Shown here in pieces: positions 10,131 to 42,272 of a DNA stretch of 64,000 nt. The translations under genes were made by a program, and so were the position numbers. Where the stretch lies: the NCBI GenBank assembly GCA_918797485.1, contig CAKKNE010000001.1, forward strand, positions 3,906,001 to 3,970,000, in the 5' to 3' direction. Origin of the DNA: Pelagomonas calceolata (lineage: Eukaryota). The notes beneath the pieces are model-generated. The model was given only the letters and a program-made list of their open reading frames with translations. It was not told where the DNA came from and did not search any database. Each line of letters begins with the position of its first letter. The first letter of the stretch is position 1.

Positions 10131-11775
10131 TTATTTCGCAGCAAAGGCGGCAGTGACCTCTTGCGTCGCGTGGCTCGCCGGTTTCGCCGAGGAGGGCGCT
10201 CCGACGTGCTGGTGGAACATGGCGCAGAATTCTTCAAATGATACGCTACCATCATGGTCGATATCGGCCATGTCGAACATCTGGGCCAGCGCTTTTTCCG
10301 CCGCGGCCTCATCGTCCCGAGGCAGCAAGTGGAGCCGGTGCATTATACTCGAAAACTCATCCCGATCGATGCTCCCGTTCCCGTCGGCGTCGAAGATGTC
10401 GAACGCGCGTCGCAGCGCCGCCGTCGAGGACGTGTAGATCGGGCCCATCGCGGAGCAGAACTCGTCAAAAGTGATTGCGCCTCTTGCGGACCCGTGCACC
10501 TCCTTGAACACGGCGAGGGCCTCCTCGCCGTGGCCGAGCGAGGCCATGACCCCGGCGAGCTCCGCGAAGGAGATCGTCCCGTTGCCTGCGCGGACGAAGC
10601 CTCACCAAACGCGTTGCGGTCTCCGGCAGGCACGCCGTCACCGCGATGATCCCCGGACGCGGCCAAATACCCTCGACGTCGAGCCCATCAAAAGCCTCCC
10701 TTAATTCCGCCCGCGCCTCGTCCGACAACGTTCCAGTGGCTGAGTGGTGCGCCGCGGCGACGGGCGCCGACGCGACCAAAGCCGCTGCTCTAATAGCGGC
10801 GGCCCACGTCCGCCGCGCTTGATTGAACGCGCGCAACCTTTCATTATTGCCGATCGGCTTTGAAGAGGCGCTCCCGGCGACCCACGGCGACGCCAACACA
10901 TCGTCCACGTCCCATCGGTCATCAGGCTTCACCGCCAGCAAATGACGAACAACGTCCTTGGCCTCCGGCGAGATCTTGGCCCAGGCCTCGTCGTGGAACT
11001 GCCACTTGCCCTGCTTTATGCGCGAGGCTAATATGGCGTCGGACGCGTCGCCCATGGGGTCAAAAGGATGATAGCCCCCCAGCAGCACGAACAGAATCAC
11101 ACCGAGCGCAAACAGGTCGCACCTGGCATCATAGGTCTTCTTCTTCGTGGCCAACAACATCTCGGGCGCGGCGTAGCCGGGAGTGCCCACCCGTTTATCT
11201 AATTTCTCACAGGGCGCCGCGGCGATGCCCAGATCACATAGTTTGACATCAGCATCATGCGCATCAGAAACCAGCAACAAGTTCTCCGGTTTTAAATCTC
11301 TATGAGCAATACCTCTCCCATGTAAGTGTTTGAGGGCTAGGGCGACTTGTTTGGCTACTAACGCAGCGTCTCTCTCGGAATAACAACCCTTCTCGCAGAT
11401 GCGCTCGAAGACCTCGCCGCCCGTCGCGAGTTCCAGGACTAAAGCTCTGGCGTCGGGCAGCTCCACCACGTCGATCAACGACACTAAGTTCGCGTGTTTG
11501 CCCGCGCGCTGCATCATCTCGATCTCCTTCGTACATAACTCCTCGTTCATGCGCGCCGTGTTAATGATCTTGCAGGCGTACGTTTCACCTCCCTTGGACG
11601 CTTTTCTTACGGTGGCGAAGGCGCCCTCGCCGAGCGTCGGGCCCAAGTCGTAAGCTCCAATCTTCTTCCGCGTCTCGTAGAAGCAGTTTGTATCATTAGT
11701 GACGAGTGTGCCCGTCGTCGCGGCGGCGGCGTATTTCGCTGCACTTGCGGCTCTCCGTACGGATGCGGCCCACAT
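10131..11775 (-). CDS. Calcium-dependent protein kinase (kinase plus EF-hands); intron 10586-10670
   Basis: GEGAFATV, HRDLKPENLL, DLG, GTPGYAAPE. Splicing restores EF-hand DVEGNGTISFAE; further EF-hands DADGNGSIDRDE and DIDHDGSVSFEE. Spliced length 1560 nt. Confidence 0.9.
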
Positions 11776-11964
11776 GCTCCGACAGGAACTGCTGGCTCTC
11801 AGAGTGCTGGGTGTGATACGGCTCTTGGAGGCGTCGGAACACTGCCAATTGCTCCTGAACTCGTATTGATGGAAGATCGTACGCAGCCCTATATTCCTGT
11901 GCGACACCCGGTGGCGCAGGAACGGCTGTAACGCAAGGCTGGAGCCGGCTCTCCCTGGGTTGGG

Positions 11965-12002: not shown

Positions 12003-15000
12003 TTATCGTGTGGAGGCCACTTTCCGGACAGATCGGAGCTTGCGCATCCCCTTCGCCACCTTGACGGCGTGGCCCGTCTCCCGCCGCTTCTTCGCCTCGC
12101 GCGCGGCGTAGGGCACGACGGCCCGCTTCAGCGCGTCGACGCCGACGTTGACGCACCGCCCATACAGGTGCTCGAGGAACCAGCCCGCCGACCACGTCGT
12201 CCGGAACGTCGAGCCATTTAATTGCCAGTCGCGCGCGAAGACGACTTCTGCCTCCCTCGGGAGGAGCAGGCCCAGGACCTGGCTGACGAGCGTGTAGTTG
12301 CTCAGGTTTATCACTTTCCTTTTCATCGCTTCCGAGTCGTCGGCGGGTAATGCACCGATCTCCGCCAGGATCGCGGCTCGTTTCGCCGTCAATTCCCTCA
12401 CGATCTCATCGACGCGCATCCTTTTTGACGGCGACTCCTCCGGATCGACAAGGGCGGCCGCGGCCGCGTACCAGCATCCACTAATACACACCACAGGCCG
12501 ACCCTCCACTATCGTCGCCGTCGCAGTACCCTTCTTGCTCTCGAGCCCGATATCCCGCGCCCACCGCCCCAGCCGCCGTTTACACTTCTTCTCCCACTCG
12601 CCGAGGCCCTCGGCGAAGGTCCGGCCCTCCTGGTCGATCGTGCGCCGCCCCTCCAGGTTCCCTAATGGTAAACCAAAGGGCGCCAGCATGCCACTGTCGT
12701 CTTTATCATTCATACACAATGATAATTGTGTCGAACCCTGGCCCACGCCGACGATCCCCCCTGGTTCATTGCGAATTTGCGGGTGCAACGCCGCCGCGTA
12801 GCGCACGGCGACGCACTCGTAAAAACATTCATCGAGATCGGACACGCGCTGGAACCGCCACAACGGATTCTTCGCGTGGATCGCCTTGAGAAATTTCTCG
12901 GCCCGTTCTAAAGCAGCACCAGTCGCAGTCCGAAACCAGGCGCCCGTGGCCACGACGACCACAGGTCCGAGCGCTGCTCGCCTCGCTCGGCCGTCGACGA
13001 CCTCCTCGTGTACTTTCAAAAAGCGGAACTTGCCGCCGGTCGACGGCGCCTCGCATTCGAGGTTGACGCGCTCTCTACTACAATCGCCGGCGGGCTGCTC
13101 TGAGGAAACGATGCCGCCGCCCTCGGCGAGCACGAAGCCCTTACAAATACCCGCCTGTTCGCCCTTTGATCCTTTTACTACCTCCGTCACCAACGGCCCG
13201 TCCCACGTTATTCCTAATGACGCCCAGTCTCCAGTTAATTCACACGTATGCGACACCGCCGAGTCGAACCATTTCTCGAAGGCATCTAACCGAGTCCCGC
13301 CCTCCTGCAGGGCCTCCTTGAGGCTTTCCTTTCGCCGGTCGACCTCCCTTAAAGCAACACCACCATCGACAAAGGAGTACTCCAGGGCCTTGGCCTCGCC
13401 CGTGCCCACGTCGAAGACGACCACCAGACACGTGTCGTGCGTGTCGTCGCCATCATCCACCGCGCGCGCCGCCCTCGACTCCGTCAGCACTTCGCTCTTC
13501 TCGAGGCTATCAAAATCGCGCATGTTCTTGTGGAAGGAGCGGAAGTAGGCGTCGTCCCGGTTCGCGGCCGCCTTCATGAGCCTGTCGCGGATGCGCCAGC
13601 GGTCCCGCAGACAACTCCCCATGTGCCAGAGGCAACCCAGGAGCGTGAGGACCGTCCACACGTCCGACGCGCGGTCGTATACCGTCGCTCTCCAGCGGCG
13701 TTTGTCCCCTGGTACCGCGTACTGCTTTTTACCGTAGTCCCAAGTTTTCACGAGACCCCAGTCCATTCTGCGGTAGCACTGCTGGGACGCTAACACCCGC
13801 AACCAGACCTGGACGAAGAACATGAAGACCGTCACGTTGACCGTCTTTTCCGGGGGTGTTAAGAAACCAACCCGAGGCAGCAACCCCCCAATATAAGCTT
13901 GTTTGGCTGCGACCGTCAGCAGCATCGTCAAAATAGCTGTTAATCTGAAATGGATGTTGCAGGGGTCGATCCAATTTACGGACAACGAGAATAATTGCAA
14001 TAAATAAGTAGGCAACAAAACGTTGTAGAAGACACCAGTAGCGTCCCTTTCTACAATAATGAGCACAGAAGCATCATCATCCGGAAAACGACCATCTAAC
14101 CTGTTGAGGACCTCGAAGCCGCCCGCCACCCCATAAAGCAATTTAATATCATTGGAGGGCAGTAAATCGGCCTCCGCATCGACCGTGTGCGGCTCGTGCA
14201 GCGGCGGCCGCAAGCGCGCCCCGAAGGTGCAAGGGTTGTAGTTCGACATTTCCACCGGTGGACTTTCGAAGCGTAGTTCTAAACCTTGCGTGTCGAAGGG
14301 GAAATTCCGCATGTCAAAGGGCTGCATGAACTCAAAAATGTCCGTGATCTCGCAGCTGAAGTGGTGGGCCCGCCGCGTCGGGCCCATGCGACCGGCGTAC
14401 TGCCTTGCCGTCCTATGCACTTGGGCATTTCTTAATACATCGCCTCTAGATGCCCTACAAGTAGGCAACATGAGTTGGGGCTTGTAGTCCTTCCAGAAGT
14501 TTTCGTACGACGCGTAGCCTTTTTCGTCCACCAGCCATTCGACGGTTATGGTCAGTTGAGCGTTGAACTTTAAACGTTGCGTGTCCAGATCAAAAAGCTT
14601 CCTGACTCTCACTCGTAAGTGGAGATCAATAGAATAGGCGAAACCCGTAGCATCCGCCACGACCCGTACCGCACCGCCGGCCGGCGGCACGCGCCACTCG
14701 TTCCCCAGCTTCATCTGGTCCTCCAGCGACTGGTTCGCCTGGACGTCGATGTAGACCTCGTCGTCGTCCGTCTCGTCGTCCTCGTTCCTATGAATGTCCC
14801 AGGCCCCGTGCCCGCCCGTCAGCACGTTTTCATCAACCACCGCCGCGACGATGGCGCCGGCACCCAATGTCTTCGGGAACTTTTTCGCGACCTTTTTGAC
14901 GTTTCTACTGATACGCTGCGCTTCGTTATCCAGGCCTTCCTTGAGGCGCTGCGCCTCCGCATCTAAGACCTCCCTCGTTTGCTCCGTGGCCTGGGCGAGC

Positions 15001-15029
15001 TCCTCTCCTACTTGTCCTACTTGCTCCAT
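12003..15029 (-). CDS. Pentameric ligand-gated ion channel-like protein (Cys-less Pro-loop, 4 TM) fused to a divergent ASKHA (apyrase/Ppx-like) domain with PDZ-like insert
   Basis: FDMRNFPFDTQ loop, ERD..GVFYNVLLP (M1), M2-M4 and LPRVGFLT. C-terminal DVGTG, ATGAWFR, GVGQGSTQ, TWSAG. PDZ-like LGITW..PLVTEVVKGSKGEQAGICKG. Confidence 0.8.
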   Translation of the reverse strand: MEQVGQVGEELAQATEQTREVLDAEAQRLKEGLDNEAQRISRNVKKVAKKFPKTLGAGAIVAAVVDENVLTGGHGAWDIHRNEDDETDDDEVYIDVQANQSLEDQMKLGNEWRVPPAGGAVRVVADATGFAYSIDLHLRVRVRKLFDLDTQRLKFNAQLTITVEWLVDEKGYASYENFWKDYKPQLMLPTCRASRGDVLRNAQVHRTARQYAGRMGPTRRAHHFSCEITDIFEFMQPFDMRNFPFDTQGLELRFESPPVEMSNYNPCTFGARLRPPLHEPHTVDAEADLLPSNDIKLLYGVAGGFEVLNRLDGRFPDDDASVLIIVERDATGVFYNVLLPTYLLQLFSLSVNWIDPCNIHFRLTAILTMLLTVAAKQAYIGGLLPRVGFLTPPEKTVNVTVFMFFVQVWLRVLASQQCYRRMDWGLVKTWDYGKKQYAVPGDKRRWRATVYDRASDVWTVLTLLGCLWHMGSCLRDRWRIRDRLMKAAANRDDAYFRSFHKNMRDFDSLEKSEVLTESRAARAVDDGDDTHDTCLVVVFDVGTGEAKALEYSFVDGGVALREVDRRKESLKEALQEGGTRLDAFEKWFDSAVSHTCELTGDWASLGITWDGPLVTEVVKGSKGEQAGICKGFVLAEGGGIVSSEQPAGDCSRERVNLECEAPSTGGKFRFLKVHEEVVDGRARRAALGPVVVVATGAWFRTATGAALERAEKFLKAIHAKNPLWRFQRVSDLDECFYECVAVRYAAALHPQIRNEPGGIVGVGQGSTQLSLCMNDKDDSGMLAPFGLPLGNLEGRRTIDQEGRTFAEGLGEWEKKCKRRLGRWARDIGLESKKGTATATIVEGRPVVCISGCWYAAAAALVDPEESPSKRMRVDEIVRELTAKRAAILAEIGALPADDSEAMKRKVINLSNYTLVSQVLGLLLPREAEVVFARDWQLNGSTFRTTWSAGWFLEHLYGRCVNVGVDALKRAVVPYAAREAKKRRETGHAVKVAKGMRKLRSVRKVASTR

Positions 15030-15377
15030 GGTTTCTACTTTGTGTCCTTATTTGCTCTGCTGCTGCGATTTGCTTGTGTAGCCCCCTTATGCAGCCCCCG
15101 GTTTGGTGCTCAGTTTTGGTGCTCCTTTGCTGCGGGCCTGGGTGCTCGCACACGCCTTGCTTACGCTGCCCCCGGGTGCGCTGCGGGCCCGGGACGAGGA
15201 ATAAAGCTGCTCCGTTGCGTTTGCAGCCTCGCTCCCCGAGCAATGCGGCGCTGCGCTCCAGGAGTTGTGCGGCCTGCCGCTGCGCCAGCCAACCCCGACG
15301 CATGGGTCCGGCGCATGAATCCCGCCAGGCACTTCCGAGAGGTGCTTTGGCCTTGGATTGGTATCCTCCTTGCAGGG

Positions 15378-15397
15378 CTAGCGGATGGAGGCACTAG
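15378..15397. promoter_or_regulatory. CTAG-bounded promoter motif variant (CTAGCGGATGGAGGCACTAG); half-site GTAAGACACT at 15443-15452
   Basis: Divergent intergenic region 15029/15570. Confidence 0.5.
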
Positions 15398-15569
15398 AGC
15401 GCTCATTTTTGTCGATGCCATTTTGCATGTGCCAATAAGGTTGTAAGACACTCTGCATCAGGGTGCATACGTTCTCACTGTATTCGCATCGATCACGTGC
15501 GGAGCGCTGGCGAGAGTTTGACCCGGAATTAAAAAAGCAGCAGCAAGCTGTGCAGCCTGCAGTGCTGAA

Positions 15570-16667
15570 ATGGCGGCCCTCACCCAACGCGACGACGCCT
15601 GGGCCTGGTGGAATCAGCTAGGAAACCCGCAAAAAGTCCTGGCGCCCATGGTCGGCGCCTCCGAGCGGGCCTTCCGCATGCTCTGTCGGAGGCACGGCTG
15701 CGATTTAGCTGTCACTCCTATGATTCACGCGCGGCTGTTCGGCGAGTGCGACAAGTTGCGGAGGGACGTGTTGAGGGATCTGGAAGGGTCTGTCGAGGCG
15801 GGGGACCGGCCGCTACTCGCGCAGCTGTGCGGAGACGACAAAGACGTTTTACTGGATTGTGCCAGCGTATGCCAGCATTATGTCGATGGGATTGACTTGA
15901 ATTTGGGATGTCCGCAGGGCATTGCGAAACGGGGCCACTACGGCGCGTTTCTGCTGGAGGAGCCCGATTTGGTGTGTGGTATCGTCGAGCACTTGTCTTC
16001 AAATCTCGAAGTTCCCGTGACCTGCAAGATCAGAATCGTGGACAAAGATAATATAGATGTCACCATACGACTCGCGAAACGTTTGGTAGAAGCGGGCGCA
16101 TCTCTGATAACAATTCATGGTCGGACGAAGGAAATGAAGGGTCAATCAGTCGGAAGTGTGAACTGGAGTCAGATTTCTACCGTTATTGAGGCGTTGGATG
16201 GTTGTGTGCCGACGCTGGCGAACGGGGGCATCGAGGTGTTTGAGGACTTATCGCGAGCGACTTGTGAAACGGGAGCGTGCGGTGCCATGACCTCCGAGGC
16301 GGCCTTGGAAGATCCGAGCGTCTTCGACGGGTCGTGTGAGGACGGCCTTTGCTTGGCTGAAGATTATTTGGGGCTCTGCGACCAGCATCCTCCGTTACTC
16401 AAATTCGCGTGCGGGCACGTGCACAAATTGCTGTTTAGATATTTACAAGCGCCGGGCGGCGAGGCGTTCCGCGCGCGGGTGGGGAGTGCGAACTCAATTG
16501 AGGAGCTTTCGGACGTCGTCGCGGCCGTGCGAGAGGCGAACATCGCAAGGAACGAGAGCACGTGGTACCGGCGGCACCGGACCGCGGCCGTGAAGCGGGT
16601 CGAGAAGGTCGCCGTGGACGTCATGGCGGAGGGTGACGACGTCATGGGGGGGCTCTTCGGGGATTAA
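15570..16667 (+). CDS. DUS1: tRNA-dihydrouridine synthase (DUS1-like)
   Basis: LAPMVG, DRPLLAQLCG, IDLNLGCPQGIAKRGHYGAFL, VTCKIR, TIHGRT, ANGGI. Confidence 0.92.
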   Translation: MAALTQRDDAWAWWNQLGNPQKVLAPMVGASERAFRMLCRRHGCDLAVTPMIHARLFGECDKLRRDVLRDLEGSVEAGDRPLLAQLCGDDKDVLLDCASVCQHYVDGIDLNLGCPQGIAKRGHYGAFLLEEPDLVCGIVEHLSSNLEVPVTCKIRIVDKDNIDVTIRLAKRLVEAGASLITIHGRTKEMKGQSVGSVNWSQISTVIEALDGCVPTLANGGIEVFEDLSRATCETGACGAMTSEAALEDPSVFDGSCEDGLCLAEDYLGLCDQHPPLLKFACGHVHKLLFRYLQAPGGEAFRARVGSANSIEELSDVVAAVREANIARNESTWYRRHRTAAVKRVEKVAVDVMAEGDDVMGGLFGD

Positions 16668-16678
16668 ATATATGTGTG

Positions 16679-17089
16679 TTACTTCCGCCGCCTCACCAGT
16701 CTCTTGAGCAAAGTCTCGACGCCCGGCGGCGGCTTGCGCGCCTGGACGGTCTTCCGGTGCTCCTCGATGAGCCGCGGCATGTCGCGCAGGCGCGCCTCCA
16801 CGTTGCGGAAGCGCTCCGCGCGCGTCCTATCGCGTTTGTGGCCCTTGGGCGGGATGAGCACGCGCGGCGCCCGGACGGGGTCCCACTCGCGCAGCCAGCC
16901 GCCCTTCGCGGGGTCGAACGTACCAAAAGTACCATCTCGAAGCGCCTGCTTCCGCGCGACGGCGGCCTCGCGCCGCGAGACGAGCGGCCGGCGCCAGGGG
17001 TTGACCTGGCCCGGCGCCGTCGGGACTTTGCGCGGTTTTAGGGCTGCGGCGCCGTGTTGCGCGAGCTTTTTTATCACGCCCTGGGACAT
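16679..17089 (-). CDS. Mitochondrial ribosomal protein mL59 (MRPL25)-like
   Basis: WRRPLVSRREAAVARK...PKGHKRDR....R...V...L.DMP..IEEHRK pattern; small basic protein. Confidence 0.75.
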   Translation of the reverse strand: MSQGVIKKLAQHGAAALKPRKVPTAPGQVNPWRRPLVSRREAAVARKQALRDGTFGTFDPAKGGWLREWDPVRAPRVLIPPKGHKRDRTRAERFRNVEARLRDMPRLIEEHRKTVQARKPPPGVETLLKRLVRRRK

Positions 17090-17260
17090 GTTTACAGCTT
17101 CTCGCTTGCTGCAGGTGGCTGAGTGTGGTAGGACTAGAATGCCTCCCGCAGCGCGCACGGCTCACGCGTCACTTTCAGGTCGTATCGCTGCTTCTGTGCG
17201 ATGCTCGCCCTACCAGTTTGCAGCGCCAATCAAGAGATTCGCGTACGCGACACTACGCAG

Positions 17261-17282
17261 CTAGCGATACTACACATACTAG
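17261..17282. promoter_or_regulatory. CTAG-bounded promoter motif variant (CTAGCGATACTACACATACTAG)
   Basis: Midway between divergent ATGs 17089 and 17448. Confidence 0.6.
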
Positions 17283-17447
17283 AAAGCCTGCAAGCAGCTC
17301 CTTTGGTCGCATTACTCGAAGCAGACGCAGTTCAAAGTTGTGTTAACCCCGCATCGCTGCTTTATCTCCACCAGGAGACAGTGAGCGAAGTCCGCGACGC
17401 GTGGCACCCGCTGCCTGCCGAGTAAGCCAAGCTGCACTGCATAAAGG

Positions 17448-18647
17448 ATGGCACAGCAACCCCCACCAACCTACGTCTTCACGGGCGACCGTCGGAGAAT
17501 CGAGCCCTACGTCTACGCCTACACCATGCACTGCAAGGGCCGCTGGTGCGGCCGGCGGCCCGACGAGGTCTTCGGGACCGAGTTCAAGATGAACCCTCCG
17601 GCCTACTACGAGGAAGCTCTACGGGATGGGCGCATCACCGTCAACGACGCGCTGTGGGACGGGCAGTCGACGCTGCAGCAGGGGGATGTGATTCGGCACC
17701 TCGCGCACCGCCACGAGCCGCCCGTGCCGAAAGGGCCGATCCGCGTCGTCGGCCTCACGGAAAACGCTTTAGCGGTGGACAAGCCGCCCGGCCTGCCCAT
17801 GCACCCGTGCGGGAGCTACCACCACAACACGCTGACCTCTTTACTAAGGGAGGACTTCACTACCAGATCTTTCGTCTGCGCCGATGGTGTCGACTGGGCG
17901 GAGGCGCAGCGAGCCGCCCGCCAAGGTCTCAGGCAGGTGCACCGCTTGGATCGGTTGACGTCGGGTCTCGTGATCTTCGCGCGGTCCGCATCCGCGGCTC
18001 GGACGCTCTGCGAGGACATCGGCCAGGGCCGCACGCAGAAGACTTATATAGCACGCGTCCGCGGTTGTTTTCCCGACGACGCGCCGGTCCTGAGGCCGGA
18101 GAAGCGGCCGCGCAACGCCGAGCTCGCCGACGGCTCGTGGCGCATTGACGGCGACTGGGTCGAGGTGTCCTGTTCATTACGGACGGCGTCGCACCGCGAC
18201 GGCGTCTGCGAGTGCGCGCCCGACGCCGAGGACGCGAAGGCGGCGCGGACGAAGTTCCGGCTCGTGCGCAAGTTGAGTGATGGGACATCAATTGTGGAAT
18301 GTAGGCCGCAGACGGGGCGCACGCACCAGATCCGGCTGCACCTCCAGTTCCTGAACCACCCCATCGCGAACGACCCCTGCTACGGCGGCGAGCTGGGCTT
18401 TGCCGGGAGTTCTTTGGTGGACGACGCGCCGCCGTCGTCCTCAGAGGTATTAGACCCGACCGGCCCGCGGCGGCCGGGCGAGTCCGACGCGGACTTCGTG
18501 CGGCGCAAGTGCGCGCGCTGCGCCTCGAAGCTGGACGTCATAGATGCGTCCGAGGAGCGTGCCTCATGCGTCTTCCTCCACGCGCGGTCCTACGCGGGGC
18601 CGGGCTGGGCCTTTGCGACGGTCGAGCCGGCCTGGGCGGCCGAGTAG
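17448..18647 (+). CDS. RluA-family pseudouridine synthase (RPUSD2/Pus8-9-like)
   Basis: HRHEPPV, VDKPPGLPMHP, HRLDRLTSG, TGRTHQIRLHL, PIANDP.Y. Confidence 0.93.
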   Translation: MAQQPPPTYVFTGDRRRIEPYVYAYTMHCKGRWCGRRPDEVFGTEFKMNPPAYYEEALRDGRITVNDALWDGQSTLQQGDVIRHLAHRHEPPVPKGPIRVVGLTENALAVDKPPGLPMHPCGSYHHNTLTSLLREDFTTRSFVCADGVDWAEAQRAARQGLRQVHRLDRLTSGLVIFARSASAARTLCEDIGQGRTQKTYIARVRGCFPDDAPVLRPEKRPRNAELADGSWRIDGDWVEVSCSLRTASHRDGVCECAPDAEDAKAARTKFRLVRKLSDGTSIVECRPQTGRTHQIRLHLQFLNHPIANDPCYGGELGFAGSSLVDDAPPSSSEVLDPTGPRRPGESDADFVRRKCARCASKLDVIDASEERASCVFLHARSYAGPGWAFATVEPAWAAE

Positions 18648-18862
18648 TAGGTGTCCCTGTGGTGTGTGTGTAACTTGTCTCGTTTCGTCGCACGACTCCT
18701 CGGGGCTAGCGGGATCTCACATGATCTCACATGACACCGGCGTTCTGCCGCGCGGCGCAGCGCGCCCAGCCAAAAATAGGTCCGGGGCCGCGGGGCAGCC
18801 GGACATGTCGTTGTTCGTCCATAAATAGAGTTATGGCAGCAGCGCCGGGCCACTAAATCAAC

Positions 18863-20488
18863 ATGAAGATGCTTTGGCTGGTGGTGCTGTGGTGCCCAGC
18901 GGCAGCAGAGATGAGGCGTCGGCTCTGTCATGCTGGCGGAGTCGACCGGGCTGATTGTGCAAACTGCATGAGCTATTGCGGTGTCTGCGCCCCAGAGTGC
19001 GGGACACCCGCGCCGACGGCAACACCCGGACCGACACCGGACGGATGCGCGATGTACGTAGCTGGTCCCGTCGTTGCGTACAGCGGTAACAAGGTGGCGA
19101 CCGTCGATTCGCTCCAGAACTACGAGCTCACGTTCACGATGGAGCTGGCGAGCGACTGGAGCATCACGAACAAGTTTCAGTCAGTCCTTCATATCGGCAG
19201 TGCGGATCAGGACCGCTTCCCTAATATACTGTTTAACCCTTCGCAATATGGTTCAGGTTTGCATGTGGCGCAGTCATACGGCGACTGCTCCCCTAGCTTC
19301 TGCCAGTGGTACCTTGGAACAGGAAGCTTCGCTGCAGCAGGCGGAACCTACGAGATCAAAGTGGTCGTCGAGAATAACCAGATGACGGTGTACATCGACG
19401 GCGTGAACCGCGGCTCCAAGTCGGGGAGCGCGACTTATGCTGCGGCAAACGCGGCGGTCTACGTCGGGGATCCGTGGTACGACGCGGCCGCAGTGACGCT
19501 CTCTCACATCTGTTTGAAGGAGATTGTATACCCGTCGCCCGCGCCGGTGATCGTGTACGTCGACCGGGAGATGTCTTGGGAGGACGCGCGCGCGCACTGC
19601 CGCGCGAACCACCACGACCTCGCGTCGATCCACAGCGCTAGCGAGAATGCGGAAGTCGATGCGCTTTGTCCTGGTCGGTGCTGGATCGGAGGGTCCGATG
19701 AGGCCCGGGAGGGCACGTGGACGTGGTCGGACGGCACCGCGTGGGACTACACGAACTGGTATCCCGGTGAGCCCAATGATGCTGGTAGTGGTCAAGATTT
19801 TCTACATATATATGGAATGTGGGAGGGCCGTTGGGACGACACGTATGAACATTTGTTGCAACCATTCGTGTGCAGTACAAGGTCTCGTGGCACCGACGAA
19901 GAAGACGACGACGACGACTCGGACGGCGACGACTCAGACGGCGACGACTCGGACGGCGATGCACTCGTTGTGATCCTGTGCGTCATCGGCGCCTTCTTTG
20001 GCGGTGCCGTCTTTGTCGGTGCAACCGTGAACAAGTGCGCCGCCAAGAGCGCAAAGGTCGCGGCGACGACGGGCGCCGCGGCGGTTCCCAACGCTGCGAC
20101 CGACGACGGCGACATGATCACCGTCGAGGCGCCCCCCGGGACGCTGGGCCTCAAGCTTGACGGGACGTCCACGAGAGTCAAAGAGGTCTTTTCCGACTCG
20201 CCTTTGGTGGGAAAGGTCTACCCCGGCGACGTTCTAAAGAGCGTCGACGGAGTCGTTGTTACCGGCGGCAAATGCTTAACCAACGCGGTCGCCGCGGCCG
20301 ACGACGGCACGAACCCGCGAACGCTCGTGTTTCTGCGAAAACAACAGCCCGCGCCGCCCATGCGCCCAGCGACCATCGTCCGCATGGGCACCGTGGAAGC
20401 GATCCACGCCTCCGACGCTTCCGCAGCGCCTCCGGTGCAGGCGACGCTCGTCCCCCACGCCACCGTTCTCTCGGTCCAACAACACTGA
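18863..20488 (+). CDS. Single-pass receptor: signal peptide, ConA/LamG-like domain, C-type lectin, TM helix, cytoplasmic PDZ
   Basis: MSWEDARAHC, LASIHS..EN, WIGG, W.WSDG, NWYPGEPND (lectin); TM LVVILCVIGAFFGGAVFVG; APPGTLGLKL...VKEV..DSPL.GKV.PGD.L.SVDG (PDZ). Confidence 0.85.
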   Translation: MKMLWLVVLWCPAAAEMRRRLCHAGGVDRADCANCMSYCGVCAPECGTPAPTATPGPTPDGCAMYVAGPVVAYSGNKVATVDSLQNYELTFTMELASDWSITNKFQSVLHIGSADQDRFPNILFNPSQYGSGLHVAQSYGDCSPSFCQWYLGTGSFAAAGGTYEIKVVVENNQMTVYIDGVNRGSKSGSATYAAANAAVYVGDPWYDAAAVTLSHICLKEIVYPSPAPVIVYVDREMSWEDARAHCRANHHDLASIHSASENAEVDALCPGRCWIGGSDEAREGTWTWSDGTAWDYTNWYPGEPNDAGSGQDFLHIYGMWEGRWDDTYEHLLQPFVCSTRSRGTDEEDDDDDSDGDDSDGDDSDGDALVVILCVIGAFFGGAVFVGATVNKCAAKSAKVAATTGAAAVPNAATDDGDMITVEAPPGTLGLKLDGTSTRVKEVFSDSPLVGKVYPGDVLKSVDGVVVTGGKCLTNAVAAADDGTNPRTLVFLRKQQPAPPMRPATIVRMGTVEAIHASDASAAPPVQATLVPHATVLSVQQH

Positions 20489-20578
20489 CTCTTTCCCTGA
20501 TCTTCCGCTTCCACCGAATCTACTCTCCACTACCTTAATTTTAAGCTTGAAATTAGTCTTCGTTTCGTCGGGGCTCGG

Positions 20579-20599
20579 CTAGCGTCTGTAAGACACTAG
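20579..20599. promoter_or_regulatory. CTAG-bounded promoter motif (CTAGCGTCTGTAAGACACTAG)
   Basis: About 200 bp upstream of ATG 20796. Confidence 0.7.
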
Positions 20600-20795
20600 G
20601 CATCCCTAGCAAAAAAGCAAGGCCGCGCCAAACCTTAAAGCCGACGTTACGTTGCTCAATCGGCACAGCTCTTCAATTGAACACAAACTCGCACTGCAGC
20701 AGACACCAGTCAAAAGGCGCGCTGCCGAGACCGTTGACAGTCCAAAAAGAGCAGCAGTCAAAAAGCAGCACAAACCGCGCGCAGCAAGGACCGCG

Positions 20796-21323
20796 ATGGC
20801 CAGCGCCCGCAAGAACCTCTGCGCCGCCCTCAAAATCGACTGCTTCGCGCCGAAGCCCGTCCCCGAAAAGGAGGAGGCCCCGGACCTCGAGGCCGGCGGC
20901 GACGAGGAGTTGGATTACAAGCAAGAGACGACAACGCCCGTCGCGGAGCCGCGGCCGCCCGCGTCGCTGCGGCGGTCGCCGTCCGACGAGCCCTACCTCG
21001 AGCCCCGCGACGACGACGACGCGCCGAACGCGCTCGTGAAGGTCGCGCGGTCGTCGACGGCGCTGCCCGCGTTCGTCAGCCTAGCCTTCTTCCAGATGAT
21101 CGCCATGGTCGGTTGGATGATGATGGCCATGGCGTCGCGCGCCGTGCGCGTCTTCTACGCCGCTTCCAACGCTCCTCTCCAACTCGAGGACGACGGCGGC
21201 GCGACGCTGCCCCTGCATTCGACCGAAGCGCCGCGGCCGCAGCCGGCCTGGGTGCGCGCGGCCTCCGAGCCCGAGGAGCTCCAGACGGAGTTCTCCTTCG
21301 CGCCGGCGCCGGAGGCGGACTGA
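20796..21323 (+). CDS. Hypothetical protein with one predicted TM helix
   Basis: ORF with GC3-rich codon usage; hydrophobic stretch LPAFVSLAFFQMIAMVGWMMMAM. Confidence 0.55.
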   Translation: MASARKNLCAALKIDCFAPKPVPEKEEAPDLEAGGDEELDYKQETTTPVAEPRPPASLRRSPSDEPYLEPRDDDDAPNALVKVARSSTALPAFVSLAFFQMIAMVGWMMMAMASRAVRVFYAASNAPLQLEDDGGATLPLHSTEAPRPQPAWVRAASEPEELQTEFSFAPAPEAD

Positions 21324-21361
21324 GGCGTCGGGGCGGGGAACTATGTAATGTGTCTGTTTAC

Positions 21362-23236
21362 TCAGACGGCGTCCTCGCCCGCGAGCGAGTAGTAGCGCCC
21401 CGCGAGGTACTGGAGGAACGCGCCCGTCGACCACGTCACGCGATAGACCTTGCCGCTCACCTTCCACTCGCGCGCGAAGAGCAGCGCGACGCCCGACGCG
21501 TCCTCGCTCACGATGAAGTCGAGACATCGCAAGAACCGCACGCCGTTCGCGCGGTCCATCGGTTTTGCTCCTTCATCATCAACTAAAGCCTGGATCTTCG
21601 GCCGCACGTCCGTCTCGTAGCTTAGGTAGCGAGGCGCGTCCTTCCTCTCAACCACACCGGCCGCGACGGCGACGTAGAAGAAGCCCGCGCTGCAGATGAT
21701 TCTGATTGGCGAAGAATCGCGGGAGTGTTTTTGCAATTGTTCCCGTAGAGGGCCGAAGGGCGCCGTGATGGACGCCGTGCACGCCGTGCGCCATCCCTCA
21801 ATCTCATCGGTTTCGACGAGGGCGATGCCCTCCTTGAGAGCTACGCGTGCGGAGAGGTGGTGGGCACCGTGGCCGCCGGCGCCGTCCATGCTCGTCTGCA
21901 CGGAACCCTTGCCGCCCGCCAGGGCCGCGATCGGCGGTTCCGCGGCAAACTCGATGGCCATCGCGTGCTTGACCGAGATCCACTCTAATGAAGCCTCTTC
22001 TTGTCCGCTCAAAACTTCAAAGTTCCATTTTGCGGATGCAGGCAAGACGCGCATGACCGTGTTCCGCAGCCACGCCAATGCCGGTTCCGCTTTCGTCGCG
22101 ACCTCGTGTTCCGAGAAGTCGCGGTACCACTGCGTCGCGCCGCATCGAACACCCGCGAAGCGATCCTCGAACGAATCACCATTTGCGAGGGTCGCGTCGA
22201 TGCGCTCTTTTGCTGTAGTTGTAGCCTGGCGGATGTTCGCCTCAACCTCTTCGAGCTCCGACGACTGTCTAGCTGGCCGATCCACGAGGTTGAAGGGGCA
22301 CGTCAGCAGATCCTCATACACCAAAGACCCGTCCGCGCCCAACGCGAGGAGCTTGAAGGCCATCTGGCCCGTTCCTAGGTCGATATACAACGTCGCCGTA
22401 CTACCGGCCCTATAAACAGTCATAGCTTTGGCACGGTCCGCGAGGACGTCCTCCTGCATGCTCTCATCTTCTGGTGAAAGGTGGTCCGCGTTGCCCACCA
22501 ATACCCTATCGAGCAACGCCTGCTGCTCGTAGACCTTCCGCCGGAACGGCAACGATTCATTATCGTCAAAAATGGCCTGGACGTCCGCTGGCGCCGACGC
22601 GATGATGTCGTTCAGCGGCGCGTACGACGCGTGCGCCGCGTCCGCCTCGTGGAGGAGTTGTATTGGTTTTCCTAAACGCATAGCGGCCCGTACCTCGAAG
22701 ACGCACCAGGCCCTTTCGAAGACACCTTTCGTCAAAATAAGCATAAATACGGCCGACGTCCGGATGCCTTCGAGCATGCCGAGTTGCGTGATGTGCATGC
22801 TCTCCTGATCATACCAGCACGAGTAGCCTCGAATCTTCATCTGCAGGTCGATCACCGCGCAGATGTCCGACGCTTCCCGCTGGAAATGCGACAGGAAGAA
22901 GGCATGTTCCAGCTTTAAAGTTTCTGGGGAGGATTTGAGCAATTGCGTTATTGTCTCGTGATGTGTTTGTGAAGAGGGCACCTCCCGAGGTTTTGATGGT
23001 GATGGTGGTTCCGCGGCGGCGACTTGCGCCCTCGTCCGCTTCACGAGCCCGTCGGCCTTTTCCAAGCGCCTCCGCAACAGGTGATTCTCATCAGTCAAAT
23101 TCTCGACGGCGCGCCGCAGTTCCTCCATCTCGCGCCGCTGCTCGCCGTGGTGCTGCTCCTGCTTGCGCTGCATGATCTCGACGCGGTGCGTCAATTTCAG
23201 GAGCGCGTCGGCGACGTCCTCGGGGGGCGTGTCCAT
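21362..23236 (-). CDS. Coiled-coil + TIR domain + divergent ASKHA (apyrase/Ppx-like) domain protein
   Basis: TIR: FFLSH, CWYDQ, MLEGIRTSAVFMLILTKGVFERAWCVFEV..A....KPI. ASKHA: IDLGTG, GATQWYR, LSGQEEA..EW, AGGKGSVQ, TWSTG. Confidence 0.85.
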   Translation of the reverse strand: MDTPPEDVADALLKLTHRVEIMQRKQEQHHGEQRREMEELRRAVENLTDENHLLRRRLEKADGLVKRTRAQVAAAEPPSPSKPREVPSSQTHHETITQLLKSSPETLKLEHAFFLSHFQREASDICAVIDLQMKIRGYSCWYDQESMHITQLGMLEGIRTSAVFMLILTKGVFERAWCVFEVRAAMRLGKPIQLLHEADAAHASYAPLNDIIASAPADVQAIFDDNESLPFRRKVYEQQALLDRVLVGNADHLSPEDESMQEDVLADRAKAMTVYRAGSTATLYIDLGTGQMAFKLLALGADGSLVYEDLLTCPFNLVDRPARQSSELEEVEANIRQATTTAKERIDATLANGDSFEDRFAGVRCGATQWYRDFSEHEVATKAEPALAWLRNTVMRVLPASAKWNFEVLSGQEEASLEWISVKHAMAIEFAAEPPIAALAGGKGSVQTSMDGAGGHGAHHLSARVALKEGIALVETDEIEGWRTACTASITAPFGPLREQLQKHSRDSSPIRIICSAGFFYVAVAAGVVERKDAPRYLSYETDVRPKIQALVDDEGAKPMDRANGVRFLRCLDFIVSEDASGVALLFAREWKVSGKVYRVTWSTGAFLQYLAGRYYSLAGEDAV

Positions 23237-23696
23237 CCTGGTGCTGGTTGTGTCACAAGGGGCAGCGTCGACGGCGTTTTGGGCGGTGGCTGCGGGTGGC
23301 GGGCAGCCGGTTGGACGCTGCCTCGTTGGTGTTAGGACAAGGCAGCTTGGTCAGCGCGCACAAGCCCCATGCGGCGCTGGAACGCCTCAGCGGCGGAGAG
23401 TTGCGAGCAGTTGGGTCGGCGATGCCTCCGCCGCTGGCCTTGGATGGATCGGGAAGCTTCCTACGACTCTGTCCTCGAGAAAAAAGGGCGCAAAAAAGCG
23501 CGCGGGTTTCTCGCGCAATAAAGGCGTTGCTTTTGTTTTTGCCGCTGTGGCGCCGCCGCGGTAGCTGCGGGCCACTTGTAACGCTGCGCTTGAAGCGCCC
23601 TGAGGCCAGGCTCTCGCTGCGCTGCGAAAAAACGCCGCAAGGAACGCCCAAAAAACTCACCGTTCACGTGAACTGTAGCAAACGCGGCAGCGGACG

Positions 23697-31079: not shown

Positions 31080-32365
31080 ATGTCCTGGCCCCTCCCGGAG
31101 GATGAGGACGAGCGCATGTCGACGCTGCGTTCATTAGAACTGTAGGAAACCAGCGTCCTGTCGTGAAACGGCGCCCCCCCCCGGGAGACGCCGCCGGCGC
31201 GCCCGTCGACGCGCCCCGGCCACCCGTTAACCGCGCAGGCTCGACACGCCCCGCCACCAGGAATTTGAGCGCATCACGGCGCTCTGCGGCACCGCGTTAA
31301 ATGTGCCCATCTGTCTTGTAAGCTTAGTGGATGAAAGGAGGCAGTGGTTCCTGTCGAATCGAGGCCTCGGTGATACGCGAGAAACGGGCCGCGAGATCGC
31401 CTTCTGCGCCCATTCGATCATGCCCGACGCCACGACGCGCGTCCACAAAGAGATCATGGTTGTTAGGGATGCGCTGGCCGACGACCGGTTCAAGGATAGC
31501 GCTTTGGTGCAAGGATGGCCGCACATCCGGTTCTACGCCGGTGCGCCCTTGCTGATCGGGGGCGAGGACGGCATCAAAAGAGCTATTGGTACTCTCTGTG
31601 TGATTGACACGGCGATAGAACATGGAGGCACCGGCGCGAGGACGGAGGACGGCTGGGGCGTGCGCGAGAAGCAGATTTTATTGGATTTCGGCGCTCTGCT
31701 GACGGGTGCCATCGAAGCGCGGCAACAGGCGCGCATGGCGATGACGGTCGCTAAAACGGACTACATCTCTTGCACCGCGCACGACATCCGCACACCAGTA
31801 GCCTGCTTCCAGCTGTCGCTCGAGCTGCTAGCTGGTAGTCAGTTAACGGACGAACAACGAGAATACGTCGAGCACGCCCAACAGTCGGTGGAAGTGATGA
31901 CCGAGACGGTGGATAGGGCCATCGAGACCGCACGAGCTCAAAGGGGCGCGAGACCCGCACAAGCTAGGCAAGAGTCCGTTTCCGTAAGGGCATTACTAGG
32001 GAAGATCGACTTCCTCACGAGATCCCTCAGTAAAGAAAGACCGGAGTTACGCTTCAGTGTAGATGATAATGTGCCCGAGTCGATAGAAACGGACGGGACG
32101 TTAGTCTGGCGGATCCTCATGAACTATGTTACGAATGCCTTGAAGGCCGCCGTGAGGCCCGGGGCCGAGCAAGGGCGAGGTGTTGATGTCCGAATATCTC
32201 GGGTGAGGGCCAACGCGACGGGCATCTCACCCGCGCAGGACTGCGCCACACTCTTGTGTCGAGCGGGCGCGATCGCCGCAGCGAAGCGCGGCGCTTTGGC
32301 GAATGAAGAAATCGCGACGGATGTGGTCGGACTAGCTCCAACGGCACGACCAGAGGAATGGTTAA

Positions 32366-32396
<31 letters not shown>

Positions 32397-33129
32397 CGAT
32401 GCCGCCCTGCGACATCGCTTGTTCAATGCGTTTGTCCAGGCCCAGGGCACGAAGGAGGGGACTGGTTTAGGATTATTTGCGGTCAAACAATGCGCCTCGC
32501 TACTGTCAGGCGCGTGCGGCGCGAGATTCAAGAACAACGAGCGACCAACCAAGAGGGCCAGGACGGGTATGTTGGAGCCGAAGTTCGATCAGGAAGATTC
32601 AGGTGAAGGTACCGGTTCTATTTTTTGGACGCTCGTACCTCTGCAGTTACCTAACAGTGAACCGGCCCAAAAAGTCGAGGAGGTGCCCGAGACTCCTGTG
32701 GAAGTCACTCGACAGTTAGAAACGGCGCCCATCGTCGAGCAAGGTAGCAGAGGCCAGGCGTTGATCGTCGAAGACTCCGCACCGATCAGAAAGATGCTGA
32801 AGAGAATACTAGAAAGGGCAGGCTTCCGCGTCGATGAAGCTGGAAATGGGGAACAAGGTTTGGATATGCTTACGAGAAGTTCATATGATGTCTGCATCAT
32901 GGACTTCCTCATGCCCATCATGGACGGCGTGACGTGCACGCGGAAGTACAGGGCCTGGGAAGCTGCTGCGAAGCGGAAGCGGACGGTCATCGTCGGGTCG
33001 TCGGCGAATGCCGACGAGACGGAGATCAACTCGGCGCTGGGCGGGGGCTTCTTCGACGGCTTCATCCCCAAGCCCGTCACGACCGCAACCCTGAAAGCGA
33101 AGCTCGACGAGTTGTATGCCGCGCAGTGA
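31080..33129 (+). CDS. Hybrid sensor histidine kinase (GAF-HisKA-HATPase-REC); intron 31142-31238
   Basis: Spliced N-terminus PEDEDERMSTLRSLELLDTP (GAF); AHDIRTP; NYVTNALK, VEDSGPG, GTGLGL; receiver IVEDS..DFLMPIMDG..KP. Confidence 0.92.
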
Positions 33130-41450: not shown

Positions 41451-41816
41451 TTTTATGTAGTAGAATGCGATCGATCGCGCGGGTGTACTCGCGTCGAGTC
41501 CCAGCCCGAGTTCTGCTCCGTACCGCCCCTAATTGGTATCCTATCCTAAGACCGACGCAACCGCAGGAGCGATGCCCGTGGTCGGCACTTCCCTGGGATT
41601 GGTAGGGTTGAATGAGGATCATTGTGGCGAGGAACTCACGCGTTGGCCACTAGACACAGCGGTTGGCACACTGGCCAACAGCGCTATAAGCACAGCGCCT
41701 AAACACAGCGCGACAAGCTGCCTAAATCCACGCACGAGCAGCTGTCAATACACGCCACGCACGCCGTAGCCGGCAATCGACCGCGGGCAGCGCCACCAGA
41801 CACACCAAGCGAAGCG

Positions 41817-42272
41817 ATGGCTCCCTTGGCCCCCGTCCCGCGCGCCCGGCGGCCGCCGCCGGACGTGCCCGTCTATGACGTGAACGACTCGCGACCGGCG
41901 TCGGCGGCCCCGTCGGAGCACTTCGCGGACCCGCCGGACGTGACTATTAGTACTGGCGTCGGGATGCGGGGCGAGCTCTCGTTCCCCAAATTATTAAGGG
42001 TCGAGGGCCACTTCGCGGGCACGCTGACGTGTGGCGGCGACGTGGTCATCGCGCCGGGCGGCACGCTCGAGGCGGACGTCGACAACGCGAACGGGTATCT
42101 GTTAGTGGAGGGTACGGTGCTCGGCAACGTCAACGCGCGAAGGGTGCAGATCGCGGCGACGGGGCGCGTCTTCGGGGACATCACGTGCAATTCTTTTATA
42201 ATTGCGCCGGGCGCGGTGGTCATCGGAGCCTGCCAGGTGCGGCCCGAGCCGCCGGAGAAGAACCTTGGGTAG
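41817..42272 (+). CDS. Bactofilin (polymer-forming cytoskeletal) domain protein
   Basis: TISTGVGMRGELSF..LLRVEGHFAG...DVVIAPGG...LLVEGTVLGNV....VQIAATGRVFGDI......IAPGAVVIG beta-helix. Confidence 0.88.
   Translation: MAPLAPVPRARRPPPDVPVYDVNDSRPASAAPSEHFADPPDVTISTGVGMRGELSFPKLLRVEGHFAGTLTCGGDVVIAPGGTLEADVDNANGYLLVEGTVLGNVNARRVQIAATGRVFGDITCNSFIIAPGAVVIGACQVRPEPPEKNLG

Follow-up and report, generated by a model that had tools for sequence, protein, structure and literature searches.

Our analyses of a 64,000-nucleotide stretch of the Pelagomonas calceolata genome (GCA_918797485.1, contig CAKKNE010000001.1), hereafter the window, have identified two single-exon genes on the minus strand, P0001 and P0002, whose products combine different N-terminal regions with the same type of C-terminal domain. 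The initial annotation had described two same-strand genes about 6.3 kb apart, and both open reading frames (ORFs) are indeed found where it placed them, with 6,333 nt and five further ORFs between them:

12003..15029, minus strand: P0001 gene, predicted Cys-less pentameric ligand-gated channel (pLGIC) subunit with a C-terminal ASKHA domain (1008 aa, single exon)
15570..21323, mixed strands: the five intervening genes, all outside the system
15570-16667, plus strand: dihydrouridine synthase gene
16679-17089, minus strand: mitoribosomal mL59 gene
17448-18647, plus strand: pseudouridine synthase gene
18863-20488, plus strand: C-type lectin membrane protein gene
20796-21323, plus strand: 175-aa ORF with no assigned function
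21362..23236, minus strand: P0002 gene, coiled-coil/TIR/ASKHA protein (624 aa, single exon)

Housekeeping genes lie both between and around P0001 and P0002, and no third copy of the ASKHA domain was found within the window. The two genes are transcribed as separate, unspliced minus-strand mRNAs in all four poly(A) RNA runs (one sample by record); P0002 transcripts have 5' ends near 23366-23369 and poly(A) near 21342-21346, and the TIR mRNA is about 10 times deeper than the channel mRNA, both being on in culture. At the L002 locus the TIR gene, the small ORF and the pseudouridine synthase gene are syntenic with the window, which is background micro-synteny: the housekeeping genes of the block are syntenic too, and conserved linkage thus needs no functional tie. 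No locus with both genes was present among the fetched loci. One relative has a TIR-cluster protein (P0051) and a channel-cluster protein (P0077) that are both encoded on 10,282-nt contigs, a hint of conserved linkage.

Architecture of the two proteins

The features of P0002 and P0001, all on the minus strand, are as follows:

23012..23221: predicted N-terminal coiled coil of P0002, residues ~6-75 (weak coiled-coil Pfam matches only)
22487..22912: TIR_2 domain of P0002, residues ~109-250
21398..22408: TIR-side ASKHA domain of P0002, residues 277-613
14037..14642: pLGIC beta-sandwich of P0001, residues ~130-331 (Pro-loop FPFD 243-246, pre-M1 Arg 328)
13605..14036: four transmembrane helices M1-M4 of P0001, residues ~332-475
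13665..13796: M3-M4 loop of P0001, variable among close relatives
12156..13439: channel ASKHA domain of P0001, residues 531-958
12960..13229: N-lobe insertion of ~90 residues in the channel ASKHA domain

The TIR domain of P0002 matches Pfam TIR_2 (PF13676; E 5e-7, 30.6 bits against a cut-off of 28) and has a Glu at E181, which we take to be the position of the NADase catalytic Glu and which is kept in 7/7 TIR fusions; it is thus predicted to be an enzymatic TIR_2 domain of the NADase type. A PADLOC scan gave weak matches in the TIR region only (best E 2.7e-6), and neither the Pfam nor the PADLOC scans found SLOG, Macro, SAVED or STING sensor domains on the window effectors.

P0001 is predicted to be a Cys-less pentameric ligand-gated channel subunit. 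The model matches GluCl, ELIC and GLIC (Foldseek E 3e-13), and the protein has the [FY]PxD motif, the pre-M1 Arg, the M1 and M2-M3 Pro residues, the beta-sandwich and four transmembrane helices; its match to NCBIfam LGIC_1 (E 1e-5) is far under the cut-off. In two orthologues the N-lobe insertion bears a weak resemblance to a PDZ domain (Pfam PDZ_6 E 0.03-0.06, under the cut-off). Among close relatives, 16-18 of the 44 residues of the M3-M4 loop differ as against 0/80 in M1-M3. Positive selection on this loop is not claimed, since a relative at 95% protein identity already has a dS of ~0.7 and relaxed constraint can explain the variation.

The channel is probably, at moderate confidence, inserted upside-down, with both its beta-sandwich and its ASKHA domain in the cytosol. 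Cys358 (M1-M2 loop) and Cys418 (after M3), which lie on the membrane side opposite the beta-sandwich, occur together in six of the eight channel fusions and are both lacking in the other two; no hydrophobic N-terminal segment was seen by hydropathy (no dedicated predictor) in any of the seven channels with an N-terminus; and the M3-M4 loop is acidic in 5/8 channel fusions, with a basic segment after M4. Against inversion, the window channel and the two orthologues nearest to it have a basic loop here (7-9 K/R vs 4-6 D/E), which fits an ordinary orientation. A signal-peptide exon may also have been missed upstream of the channel gene; none was seen in the RNA reads, where depth at the 5' end is only 2-4. 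If the channel is inverted, both ASKHA domains could see one ligand pool.

Fold and family of the shared domain

The collinearity of the two C-terminal domains is borne out by the presence, in the claimed order, of all 12 motif strings quoted in the initial annotation. In P0001 these regions are ACR1 DVGTG at 540, ACR2 ATGAWFR at 694, ACR3 DECFYEC at 733, ACR4 GVGQGSTQ at 761 and ACR5 RTTWSAG at 943, and in P0002 DLGTG at 286, GATQWYR at 366, EEASLEW at 413, AGGKGSVQ at 440 and RVTWSTG at 599. The domains are 23% identical over 264 columns (blastp E 5e-15), and their Smith-Waterman score of 159 was attained by none of 1000 shuffles (mean 37.5, sd 5.3). Pairwise similarity spans ACR3 to ACR5, and the N-lobe motifs align in family alignments.

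As modelled (pLDDT 68.5), the TIR-side domain is predicted to have an ASKHA fold of the NTPDase/Ppx type, as the initial annotation had supposed: Foldseek (E 1.8e-11) and VIA (Z 14.1, rmsd 5.2 over 293 residues) agree in placing NTPDases and Ppx/GppA at the top, and the best 16 VIA matches all belong to these two groups. The Foldseek list of the full-channel model is filled by pLGICs, and the ASKHA fold is assigned to the channel-side domain, as a prediction, by homology to the TIR-side copy and to the family HMM (E 9e-83, with the channel domain included in building the HMM). In a single-sequence search the TIR-side domain matched only p27 in the PDB, by chance; its Atlas leads are all <0.9 (GDA1/CD39 0.84, a mostly viral cluster 0.80); Pfam GDA1_CD39 has no match in the window proteins at E 0.5; and the Ppx/GppA profile TIGR03706 matches P0002 at E 0.16, far under the cut-off. 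The Ppx/GppA metal motif DxGGGSxE is absent, with [AGS]xGxGSxQ in its place. A complex prediction for the two ASKHA domains scored 0.00 with alignments not used, which speaks neither for nor against binding.

The domain belongs to what is apparently a large, undescribed protist family, which has no Pfam entry and comprises 355 clusters at 50% identity; the initial annotation had named a large and scattered family as counting against its reading, and the size of this one does so in part. Alignment A3 was left out of the library search because N-terminal domains had entered its profile (675 positions). Searches with one short motif gave 12 pattern matches in viral contigs, none of them confirmed, and no match in prokaryote genomes. 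Altogether 94 proteins supplied the 102 complete domains in which cleft residues were counted. The ACR1 Asp and ACR5 Trp are invariant (102/102 each); a Glu four residues beyond the catalytic Glu (Glu+4; 99/102) is nearly so; and the ACR2 Thr/Ser (96/102) and Arg (95/102), the catalytic Glu of ACR3 (98/102, both window copies included, where it aligns with ACR3 of NTPDases) and the ACR4 G-x-G-S-x-Q residues (99, 91, 93 and 88 of 102) are kept in most domains. The TIR copy has Glu 414 at the catalytic position and keeps the ACR2 Thr, and its domain has a dN/dS of ~0.05 against L001; the channel copy has Gly in place of the ACR2 Thr/Ser. The ACR4 Asp is missing from both window copies, exactly as first noted; its place is taken by Ala on the TIR side and by Gly on the channel side. 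The step from this loss to a sensor or interaction module holds only in part: the Asp is lost family-wide (0/102), and its loss is no proof of inactivity since the catalytic Glu is kept. The active site thus appears to be rebuilt rather than dead.

Members of the family are stand-alone or fused to effector domains. The proposed survey of fusion partners with the family HMM identified, among 75 long matches, fusions with TIR (3), pLGIC (3), Ion_trans (1), NACHT (3), LRR (2), ADP-ribosyltransferase (ART; 3), ankyrin (8), EF-hand (4) and WD40 with C-terminal hydrophobic segments (6). The layout of an effector plus one common domain is typical of ligand sensors, and the range of partners supports the view of the domain as a portable module for signalling. 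In 43/75 long matches no Pfam family was found, and 71 of 146 new matches are short (stand-alone or fragments); with so many unfused or short members, many may be plain enzymes. Some fusions may be chimeras created by gene calling. Probable cases, which were set aside, are the channel-cNMP proteins P0009-P0013 and the transferase-TIR proteins P0051 and P0060; P0007, an intact channel, and a piece of a cNMP-cluster protein are both on 9,706-nt contigs.

The seven TIR fusions and the six single-domain pLGIC fusions form separate clades (FastTree 0.999 and 0.982), the TIR clade sitting amid NACHT, ART, ankyrin and channel fusions, so that the window copies are separate old fusions. Against stand-alone members the channel domain reaches 93-100 bits, vs 36 against the TIR copy; on these bit scores and the tree placement we reject the view that the pair arose by a recent duplication at the locus, and the idea that the two domains are close homologues of each other does not survive tree-distance ranks of 56 and 71 of 98.

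Possible roles of the domain and of the gene pair

We lean tentatively, at somewhat under an even chance, towards a reading in which the domain is a cytosolic nucleotide-operated switch and the two window genes are parallel, separately evolved effectors. A phosphate-rich ligand (candidates being a nucleoside di- or triphosphate, an alarmone-like nucleotide or polyphosphate) would be bound, together with a metal ion, where the two lobes face each other via the ACR1 and ACR4 glycine loops, Glu+4 likely standing in for the lost ACR4 Asp. Cleft closure would likely drive TIR self-assembly and NAD+ cleavage in P0002 and gate the channel pore in P0001 via a long helix continuing M4; we infer the allostery of both effectors from their architecture only. 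Slow hydrolysis by the kept Glu would likely reset the switch, and more slowly in the channel clade, where the ACR2 Thr/Ser is lost. Of all this, what the analyses show directly is the fold, the conservation of the cleft residues, the independence of the two fusions and the expression. Against a purely parallel view, a rare family is unlikely to be represented twice within six genes by chance if the genome has few members of it.

It is rather doubtful, but deserves weight, that the domain is instead an ordinary, active phosphohydrolase whose metal site has been rebuilt and which, tethered to an effector, destroys a nucleotide locally; on a normally oriented channel it would be a CD39-like ecto-enzyme that clears the agonist. 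The near-invariance of the ACR1 Asp, ACR2 Thr/Ser, ACR3 Glu and ACR5 Trp is in keeping with hydrolysis, as are the nearest solved relatives, which are active NTPDases and Ppx/GppA, the many members that are stand-alone, carry an N-terminal Met-Gly or are membrane-anchored, and P0020, in which fusion to a RelA/SpoT-like nucleotidyltransferase gives a writer-eraser layout. However, productive NTPDase complexes generally have symmetric DXG aspartates (PMC12489842), one of which is missing in all members. The L006 and L007 channels, moreover, keep tandem, catalytically degenerate copies that lack the Glu, which indicates that a non-catalytic role exists, and the apparent lack of signal peptides argues against the ecto-enzyme version. 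These tandem and degenerate copies, and the presence of the domain on NLR-like proteins, would also suit a ligand-free scaffold in which like-with-like contacts join TIR, channel and NLR-like proteins; we consider this very improbable, as the near-invariant residues form a phosphate/metal-binding cleft rather than a variable-family surface, and the window domains are only 23% identical.

The proposal that the TIR and the channel are coupled to one signal is weakened by the housekeeping neighbours and the different clades of the two domains. As a dedicated two-gene defence or signalling circuit, likened to Thoeris-type pairs of a TIR and a membrane effector, it would involve a common second messenger or a TIR-made NAD-derived nucleotide that opens the channel. 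The closeness of the genes, with five between them, the TIR catalytic Glu, the probably cytosolic location of both ASKHA domains, the placement of the TIR clade and the contigs of P0051 and P0077 point this way, but the syntenic block in L002 and the tenfold excess of TIR mRNA do not, and the window was chosen for its TIR-channel coincidence; we regard this circuit as unlikely. Somewhat less probable is a protist second-messenger immune network working through this one ASKHA domain, with TIR NADase, NLR-like, ADP-ribosylating and inverted-channel outputs, and with the window genes as a linked signal-and-kill pair.

The literature search gave no description of this domain pairing, as the initial annotation had surmised. 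One unannotated domain occurs on TIR, NLR-like and ADP-ribosyltransferase proteins and on at least two channel superfamilies, and its single pocket, once assayed, would permit a direct search for a protist nucleotide messenger in infection sensing. A pLGIC with a fused nucleotide-binding domain, probably inverted, would if true be a surprise for the channel field, which takes pentameric receptors to read extracellular ligands. Even the tamer outcome, in which the family is a new branch of the NTPDase/Ppx group whose metal site has been rebuilt, would fill an annotation gap for hundreds of protist proteins.

Comparison with known systems

The GDA1/CD39 NTPDases (PF01150; e.g. Trifolium NTPDase 5u7p, Legionella NTPDase1 and rat NTPDase1) have in common with the family the ASKHA fold, the order of ACR1-5, the ACR1 Asp, ACR2 Thr, ACR3 Glu, ACR4 G-x-S-x-Q and ACR5 Trp. 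The family differs from them in the absence of the ACR4 Asp, in a structural identity of 10-13%, in its specific ACR2 Trp, Glu+4, Asn and F-x-R-x-W motifs, and in its fusion to effectors, the window proteins having no apparent signal peptide and no flanking anchors. Ppx/GppA proteins (PF02541) have the same fold (Z 13.9 vs 14.1 for NTPDase) and give weak profile matches in three members, whereas the family is eukaryotic and modular and lacks the acidic pair of DxGGGSTE and the C-terminal HD-like domains.

Defence proteins that join an effector to a sensor include TIR-SAVED, TIR-STING (CBASS), Thoeris ThsA/ThsB and SARM1. The window proteins resemble them in having a TIR with the catalytic Glu and a predicted small-molecule-binding domain, and a channel effector joined to a domain that is predicted to bind nucleotides. 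They differ in that the sensor fold is ASKHA and not SAVED, STING, SLOG, Macro or ARM and in having housekeeping neighbours, no operon and no nearby synthase gene. Lastly, P0001 has in common with the Cys-less protist Pro-loop receptors, ELIC, GLIC and GluCl the beta-sandwich and four helices, FPFD, the pre-M1 Arg, the M1 Pro and the M2-M3 Pro. Some protist Cys-less receptors have unspecified extra C-terminal sequence (Jaiteh et al., 2016; PMC4795631). The channel fusions are set apart from such receptors by the apparent lack of a signal peptide, by a probable inverted orientation and by the one to three ASKHA copies that they carry at the C-terminus.

A C-terminal domain common to a channel and a TIR protein

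The two genes of interest, which encode an ion channel of the pentameric ligand-gated type (pLGIC; P0001) and a coiled-coil/TIR protein (P0002), are separated by 6,333 nt:

12003-15029, minus strand: channel gene P0001, single-exon ORF, 1008 aa
21362-23236, minus strand: TIR gene P0002, single-exon ORF, 624 aa

The C-terminal parts of their products share 23% identity over 264 columns (blastp, E 5e-15), a score matched by 0 of 1000 shuffles. The common domain proposed in the initial annotation is thus borne out, and all twelve motifs quoted there are present in the order stated. The apyrase/Ppx-type ASKHA fold suggested for it also held in a Foldseek search with the modelled TIR-side domain (pLDDT 68.5, pTM 0.52), where the first matches were NTPDases and Ppx/GppA enzymes (E 1.8e-11). 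The best VIA-align match had Z 14.1 (rmsd 5.2, 293 residues aligned), and the 16 top rows were all NTPDase or Ppx/GppA enzymes, with acetate kinases next at Z 8.6. Profile searches against solved structures matched rat NTPDase1 (E 0.013) and Legionella NTPDase1 (E 0.002), which fixes the register of the apyrase-conserved regions ACR2-ACR4; the channel-side domain would share this fold by homology.

In P0002 the domain is preceded by a predicted coiled coil and a TIR_2 domain scoring over the Pfam cut-off, whose Glu181, at the catalytic position of NAD-cleaving TIRs, is conserved in all 7 TIR fusions found. P0001 had no match in the Pfam scan; its model (residues 106-970, pLDDT 60) has a beta-sandwich and four membrane helices (M1-M4), after the last of which the ASKHA domain follows, and resembles GluCl, ELIC and GLIC (E 3e-13). 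The protein has the conserved pLGIC residues set out by Jaiteh et al. (PMC4795631) and lacks the cysteines of Cys-loop receptors. That source describes Cys-less pLGICs in stramenopiles and haptophytes, the extra terminal segments of pLGICs being discarded there without a name.

The two-gene finding is real and expressed: in four poly(A) RNA runs, recorded as a single sample, transcription of both genes proceeds from the minus strand as separate transcripts without splice joints, at depths per bin of 32-275 for the TIR gene and 0.5-23 for the channel gene. Purifying selection acts on every part of the TIR gene (dN/dS 0.05-0.06 against a related locus, L001), and the nearest named homologue belongs to Pelagophyceae sp. 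CCMP2097 (52% within the domain). In the 5' part of the TIR gene (22924-23237), four reads of a single run connect 23237 back to 22924, probably a library artefact.

Active site and fusion partners of the domain family

The residue counts cover 94 proteins with 102 complete domains, among them the window's two and their orthologues; incomplete domains were dropped. The ACR4 Asp, noted initially as absent from both window copies, is absent family-wide (Ala 41, Ser 33, Gly 23, others 5, Asp 0). Two DXG aspartates are a general trait of productive NTPDase complexes, according to PMC12489842, and on this point the present family, which keeps the ACR1 Asp (102/102) but not that of ACR4, falls outside the NTPDases. 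Also conserved are the ACR2 Thr/Ser (96/102), the ACR3 catalytic Glu (98/102), the ACR5 Trp (102/102) and the ACR4 motif G-x-G-S-x-Q, together with near-invariant family-specific residues (viz. a Glu four residues past the catalytic Glu, 99/102; Arg, 98/102; Asn, 93/102; and Trp, 89/102). Judged from these sequences, the active site is one rebuilt under strong constraint, in which the additional Glu would stand in for the lost Asp. ASKHA kinases likewise lack an Asp in the ACR4-type loop, so a kinase role is conceivable, although nothing here points to one. The ACR2 Thr/Ser is replaced by Gly in five pLGIC-fused copies, the window channel's among them, and the catalytic Glu is lost in the first tandem copies of two metagenome loci (L006 and L007), which suggests that channel copies are drifting to non-catalytic use.

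At E up to 0.001, a 7-sequence profile retrieved 355 clusters (50% identity). The 205 weaker ones may include ordinary Ppx or NTPDases; 146 of the best 150 were not among the relatives already collected. The 75 of these with at least 430 aa were scanned against Pfam, revealing as partners ankyrin (8), WD40 (6), EF-hand (4), TIR (3), NACHT (3, one scoring under the cut-off), ADP-ribosyltransferase (3), LRR (2), and, once each, Ion_trans, IQ, C2, U-box, HMG and dynein stalk. No Pfam family was found at E 0.001 in 43 of the 75, three of which are additional pLGIC fusions. All 6 WD40 fusions have several hydrophobic segments at the C-terminal end. Other architectures include one ASKHA-NACHT-LRR protein in the haptophyte Prymnesium parvum, pLGICs with three tandem ASKHA copies (L006, L007) and stand-alone members beginning Met-Gly (metagenome locus L010). 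For most fusions the source is a single predicted gene, and chimeras may be among them.

Several subgroups were also observed. The three-copy pLGICs (L006 44-6340, L007 78-4859, and L005) belong to eukaryotes of 48-49% GC, and their first two copies are degenerate. Seven proteins of 1,570-1,740 aa (P0129, P0209, P0125, P0211, P0120, P0212, P0225) form one clade that may be a further channel family; they combine an N-terminal ASKHA domain with WD40 repeats and, at the C-terminal end, four to six hydrophobic segments. In P0223, P0208 and P0232 the ASKHA domain occurs as a tandem pair, and in both copies an insertion separates the lobes; P0223 and P0232 also carry EF-hands, which makes a calcium-linked subfamily possible.

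The full texts searched, which include only some subscription papers, describe no pLGIC, TIR or NACHT protein with a fused apyrase/Ppx-like domain and no inverted pLGIC; the domain pairing is, in line with the initial annotation, without an account there, and the family and its fusions are apparently undescribed so far. In their accessible parts, a 2026 protist immunity preprint (10.64898/2026.10.11.758280) mentions a viral TIR-nuclease, with apyrase, Ppx, NTPDase and ligand-gated not occurring in the text, and a brown-algal genomics preprint (10.1101/2024.02.19.579948) reports pLGIC presence only.

Origin and linkage of the two genes

The window domains are not each other's close homologues, contrary to what had been expected. 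The channel domain scores 93-100 bits to stand-alone members vs. 36 to the TIR copy. In a FastTree phylogeny of 99 domains (three degenerate repeats omitted; deep branches weakly supported), all 7 TIR fusions group in a single clade (0.999) nested among ankyrin, NACHT, ADP-ribosyltransferase and channel fusions, the 6 single-domain pLGIC fusions lie in a different clade (0.982) along with two partial proteins, and each window copy ranks only 56th or 71st of 98 in distance from the other. The separate clades and low mutual rank rule out a recent local duplication, and the sequences indicate two old fusions, formed independently.

Five genes lie between the pair (viz. Dus, mL59, pseudouridine synthase, C-type lectin and a small ORF), and no defence cluster was found among 27 further window ORFs. 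In L002, a relative with 58% identity, TIR, small ORF and pseudouridine synthase are found in unchanged order, so the locus is syntenic anyway. P0051 (TIR-cluster) and P0077 (channel-cluster), from an L002-type relative, are each on a 10,282-nt contig, an indirect hint that the TIR-channel linkage is old; further comparisons gave no second match of this kind. For an assumed 15,000 or so genes and hypothetical member counts, the chance of two members falling within six genes is about 0.001 with two members and about 0.04 with ten, in a window picked from very many for its coincidence. We consider a functional link between the two genes rather improbable.

Several neighbouring genes were noted. 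The C-type lectin gene (18863-20488, plus strand) encodes a membrane protein with a concanavalin-like domain and is missing between the small ORF and pseudouridine synthase in L002; its RNA in run X24 is about 5-10 times above the other three runs, and loose read ends around 19168-19478 point to a paralogue. Immediately downstream of the channel gene is a calcium-dependent protein kinase-like gene (10131-11964, minus strand), with kinase and EF-hand ORFs in different frames and probably spliced. A hybrid histidine kinase (GAF-HisKA-HATPase-receiver; 31231-33126, plus strand) and, in this eukaryotic genome, a bactofilin-domain ORF (41703-42269, plus strand; Pfam E 6.5e-21) are also present.

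Channel orientation and a proposed switch

In four-helix pLGICs a C-terminal domain lies on the beta-sandwich side, outside in known pLGICs, and the usual orientation would thus part the channel's ASKHA domain from a cytosolic TIR. On the side of inversion, hydropathy (0.03-0.87 for the best 12 residues) shows no hydrophobic leader in any of the 7 channel fusions whose N-terminus is present. Cysteines in the M1-M2 loop and after M3 occur together in 6 of 8 channel fusions and are both absent from the other 2, the pattern that a disulfide facing an oxidising side would give, and the M3-M4 loop of two fusions carries a second Cys pair. This loop is acidic in 5 of 8, and the post-M4 segment is basic. 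Against inversion count the basic M3-M4 loop of the window channel and its two nearest orthologues, the low read depth at the gene's 5' end, and the fact that the cysteines could instead be acylation sites. On balance, the channel is probably inserted inverted.

The M3-M4 loop (13665-13796, minus strand) has three versions in four close relatives, with 16-18 of 44 residues differing vs. 0 of 80 in M1-M3, and seawater RNA contigs carry 81 different letters in place of 13667-13734. In an inverted channel this would be the principal exposed loop; relaxed constraint also explains the variation. In P0023, 31 of 113 residues differ at about 850-960 (orthologous to 12156-12490, C-lobe of the ASKHA domain) vs. 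2-7 in other close relatives, suggesting recombination.

In the most likely reading, the ASKHA domain would close on a metal-bound, phosphate-rich ligand, and this movement would pass into the fused effector: in one protein the TIR would assemble and cleave NAD+, in the other the pore would be gated via the M4 extension, and slow hydrolysis would reset the switch. P0020 (EukProt), where a RelA/SpoT-like nucleotidyltransferase (E 2e-9 to the XopAD-family profile, Atlas score 0.94) is attached to an ASKHA C-lobe, is one sequence hinting at an alarmone-like ligand. We tentatively prefer such a nucleotide-type switch on two parallel effectors, a reading in which fold, conservation and architecture are observed and the later steps are inferred. 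A tethered enzyme destroying the signal would suit the conserved catalytic Glu and fits less well with the loss of that Glu from tandem copies on channels; we regard it as unlikely. Slightly more doubtful is the same switch with both genes in one dedicated circuit, which has the gene proximity on its side and the separate clades on the other, although a coupled two-gene immune module is possible. A pure scaffold is very improbable beside so constrained an active site.

The lasting findings extend beyond the two genes: marine protists use, as a module on channels and on immune-type proteins, an NTPDase/Ppx-fold family that lacks annotation, and the pentameric channel is probably inverted. As known here from sequence and models, the window proteins fall into the general kind of effector-plus-nucleotide-sensor systems, for which Thoeris, CBASS and SARM1 are the known systems used for comparison.
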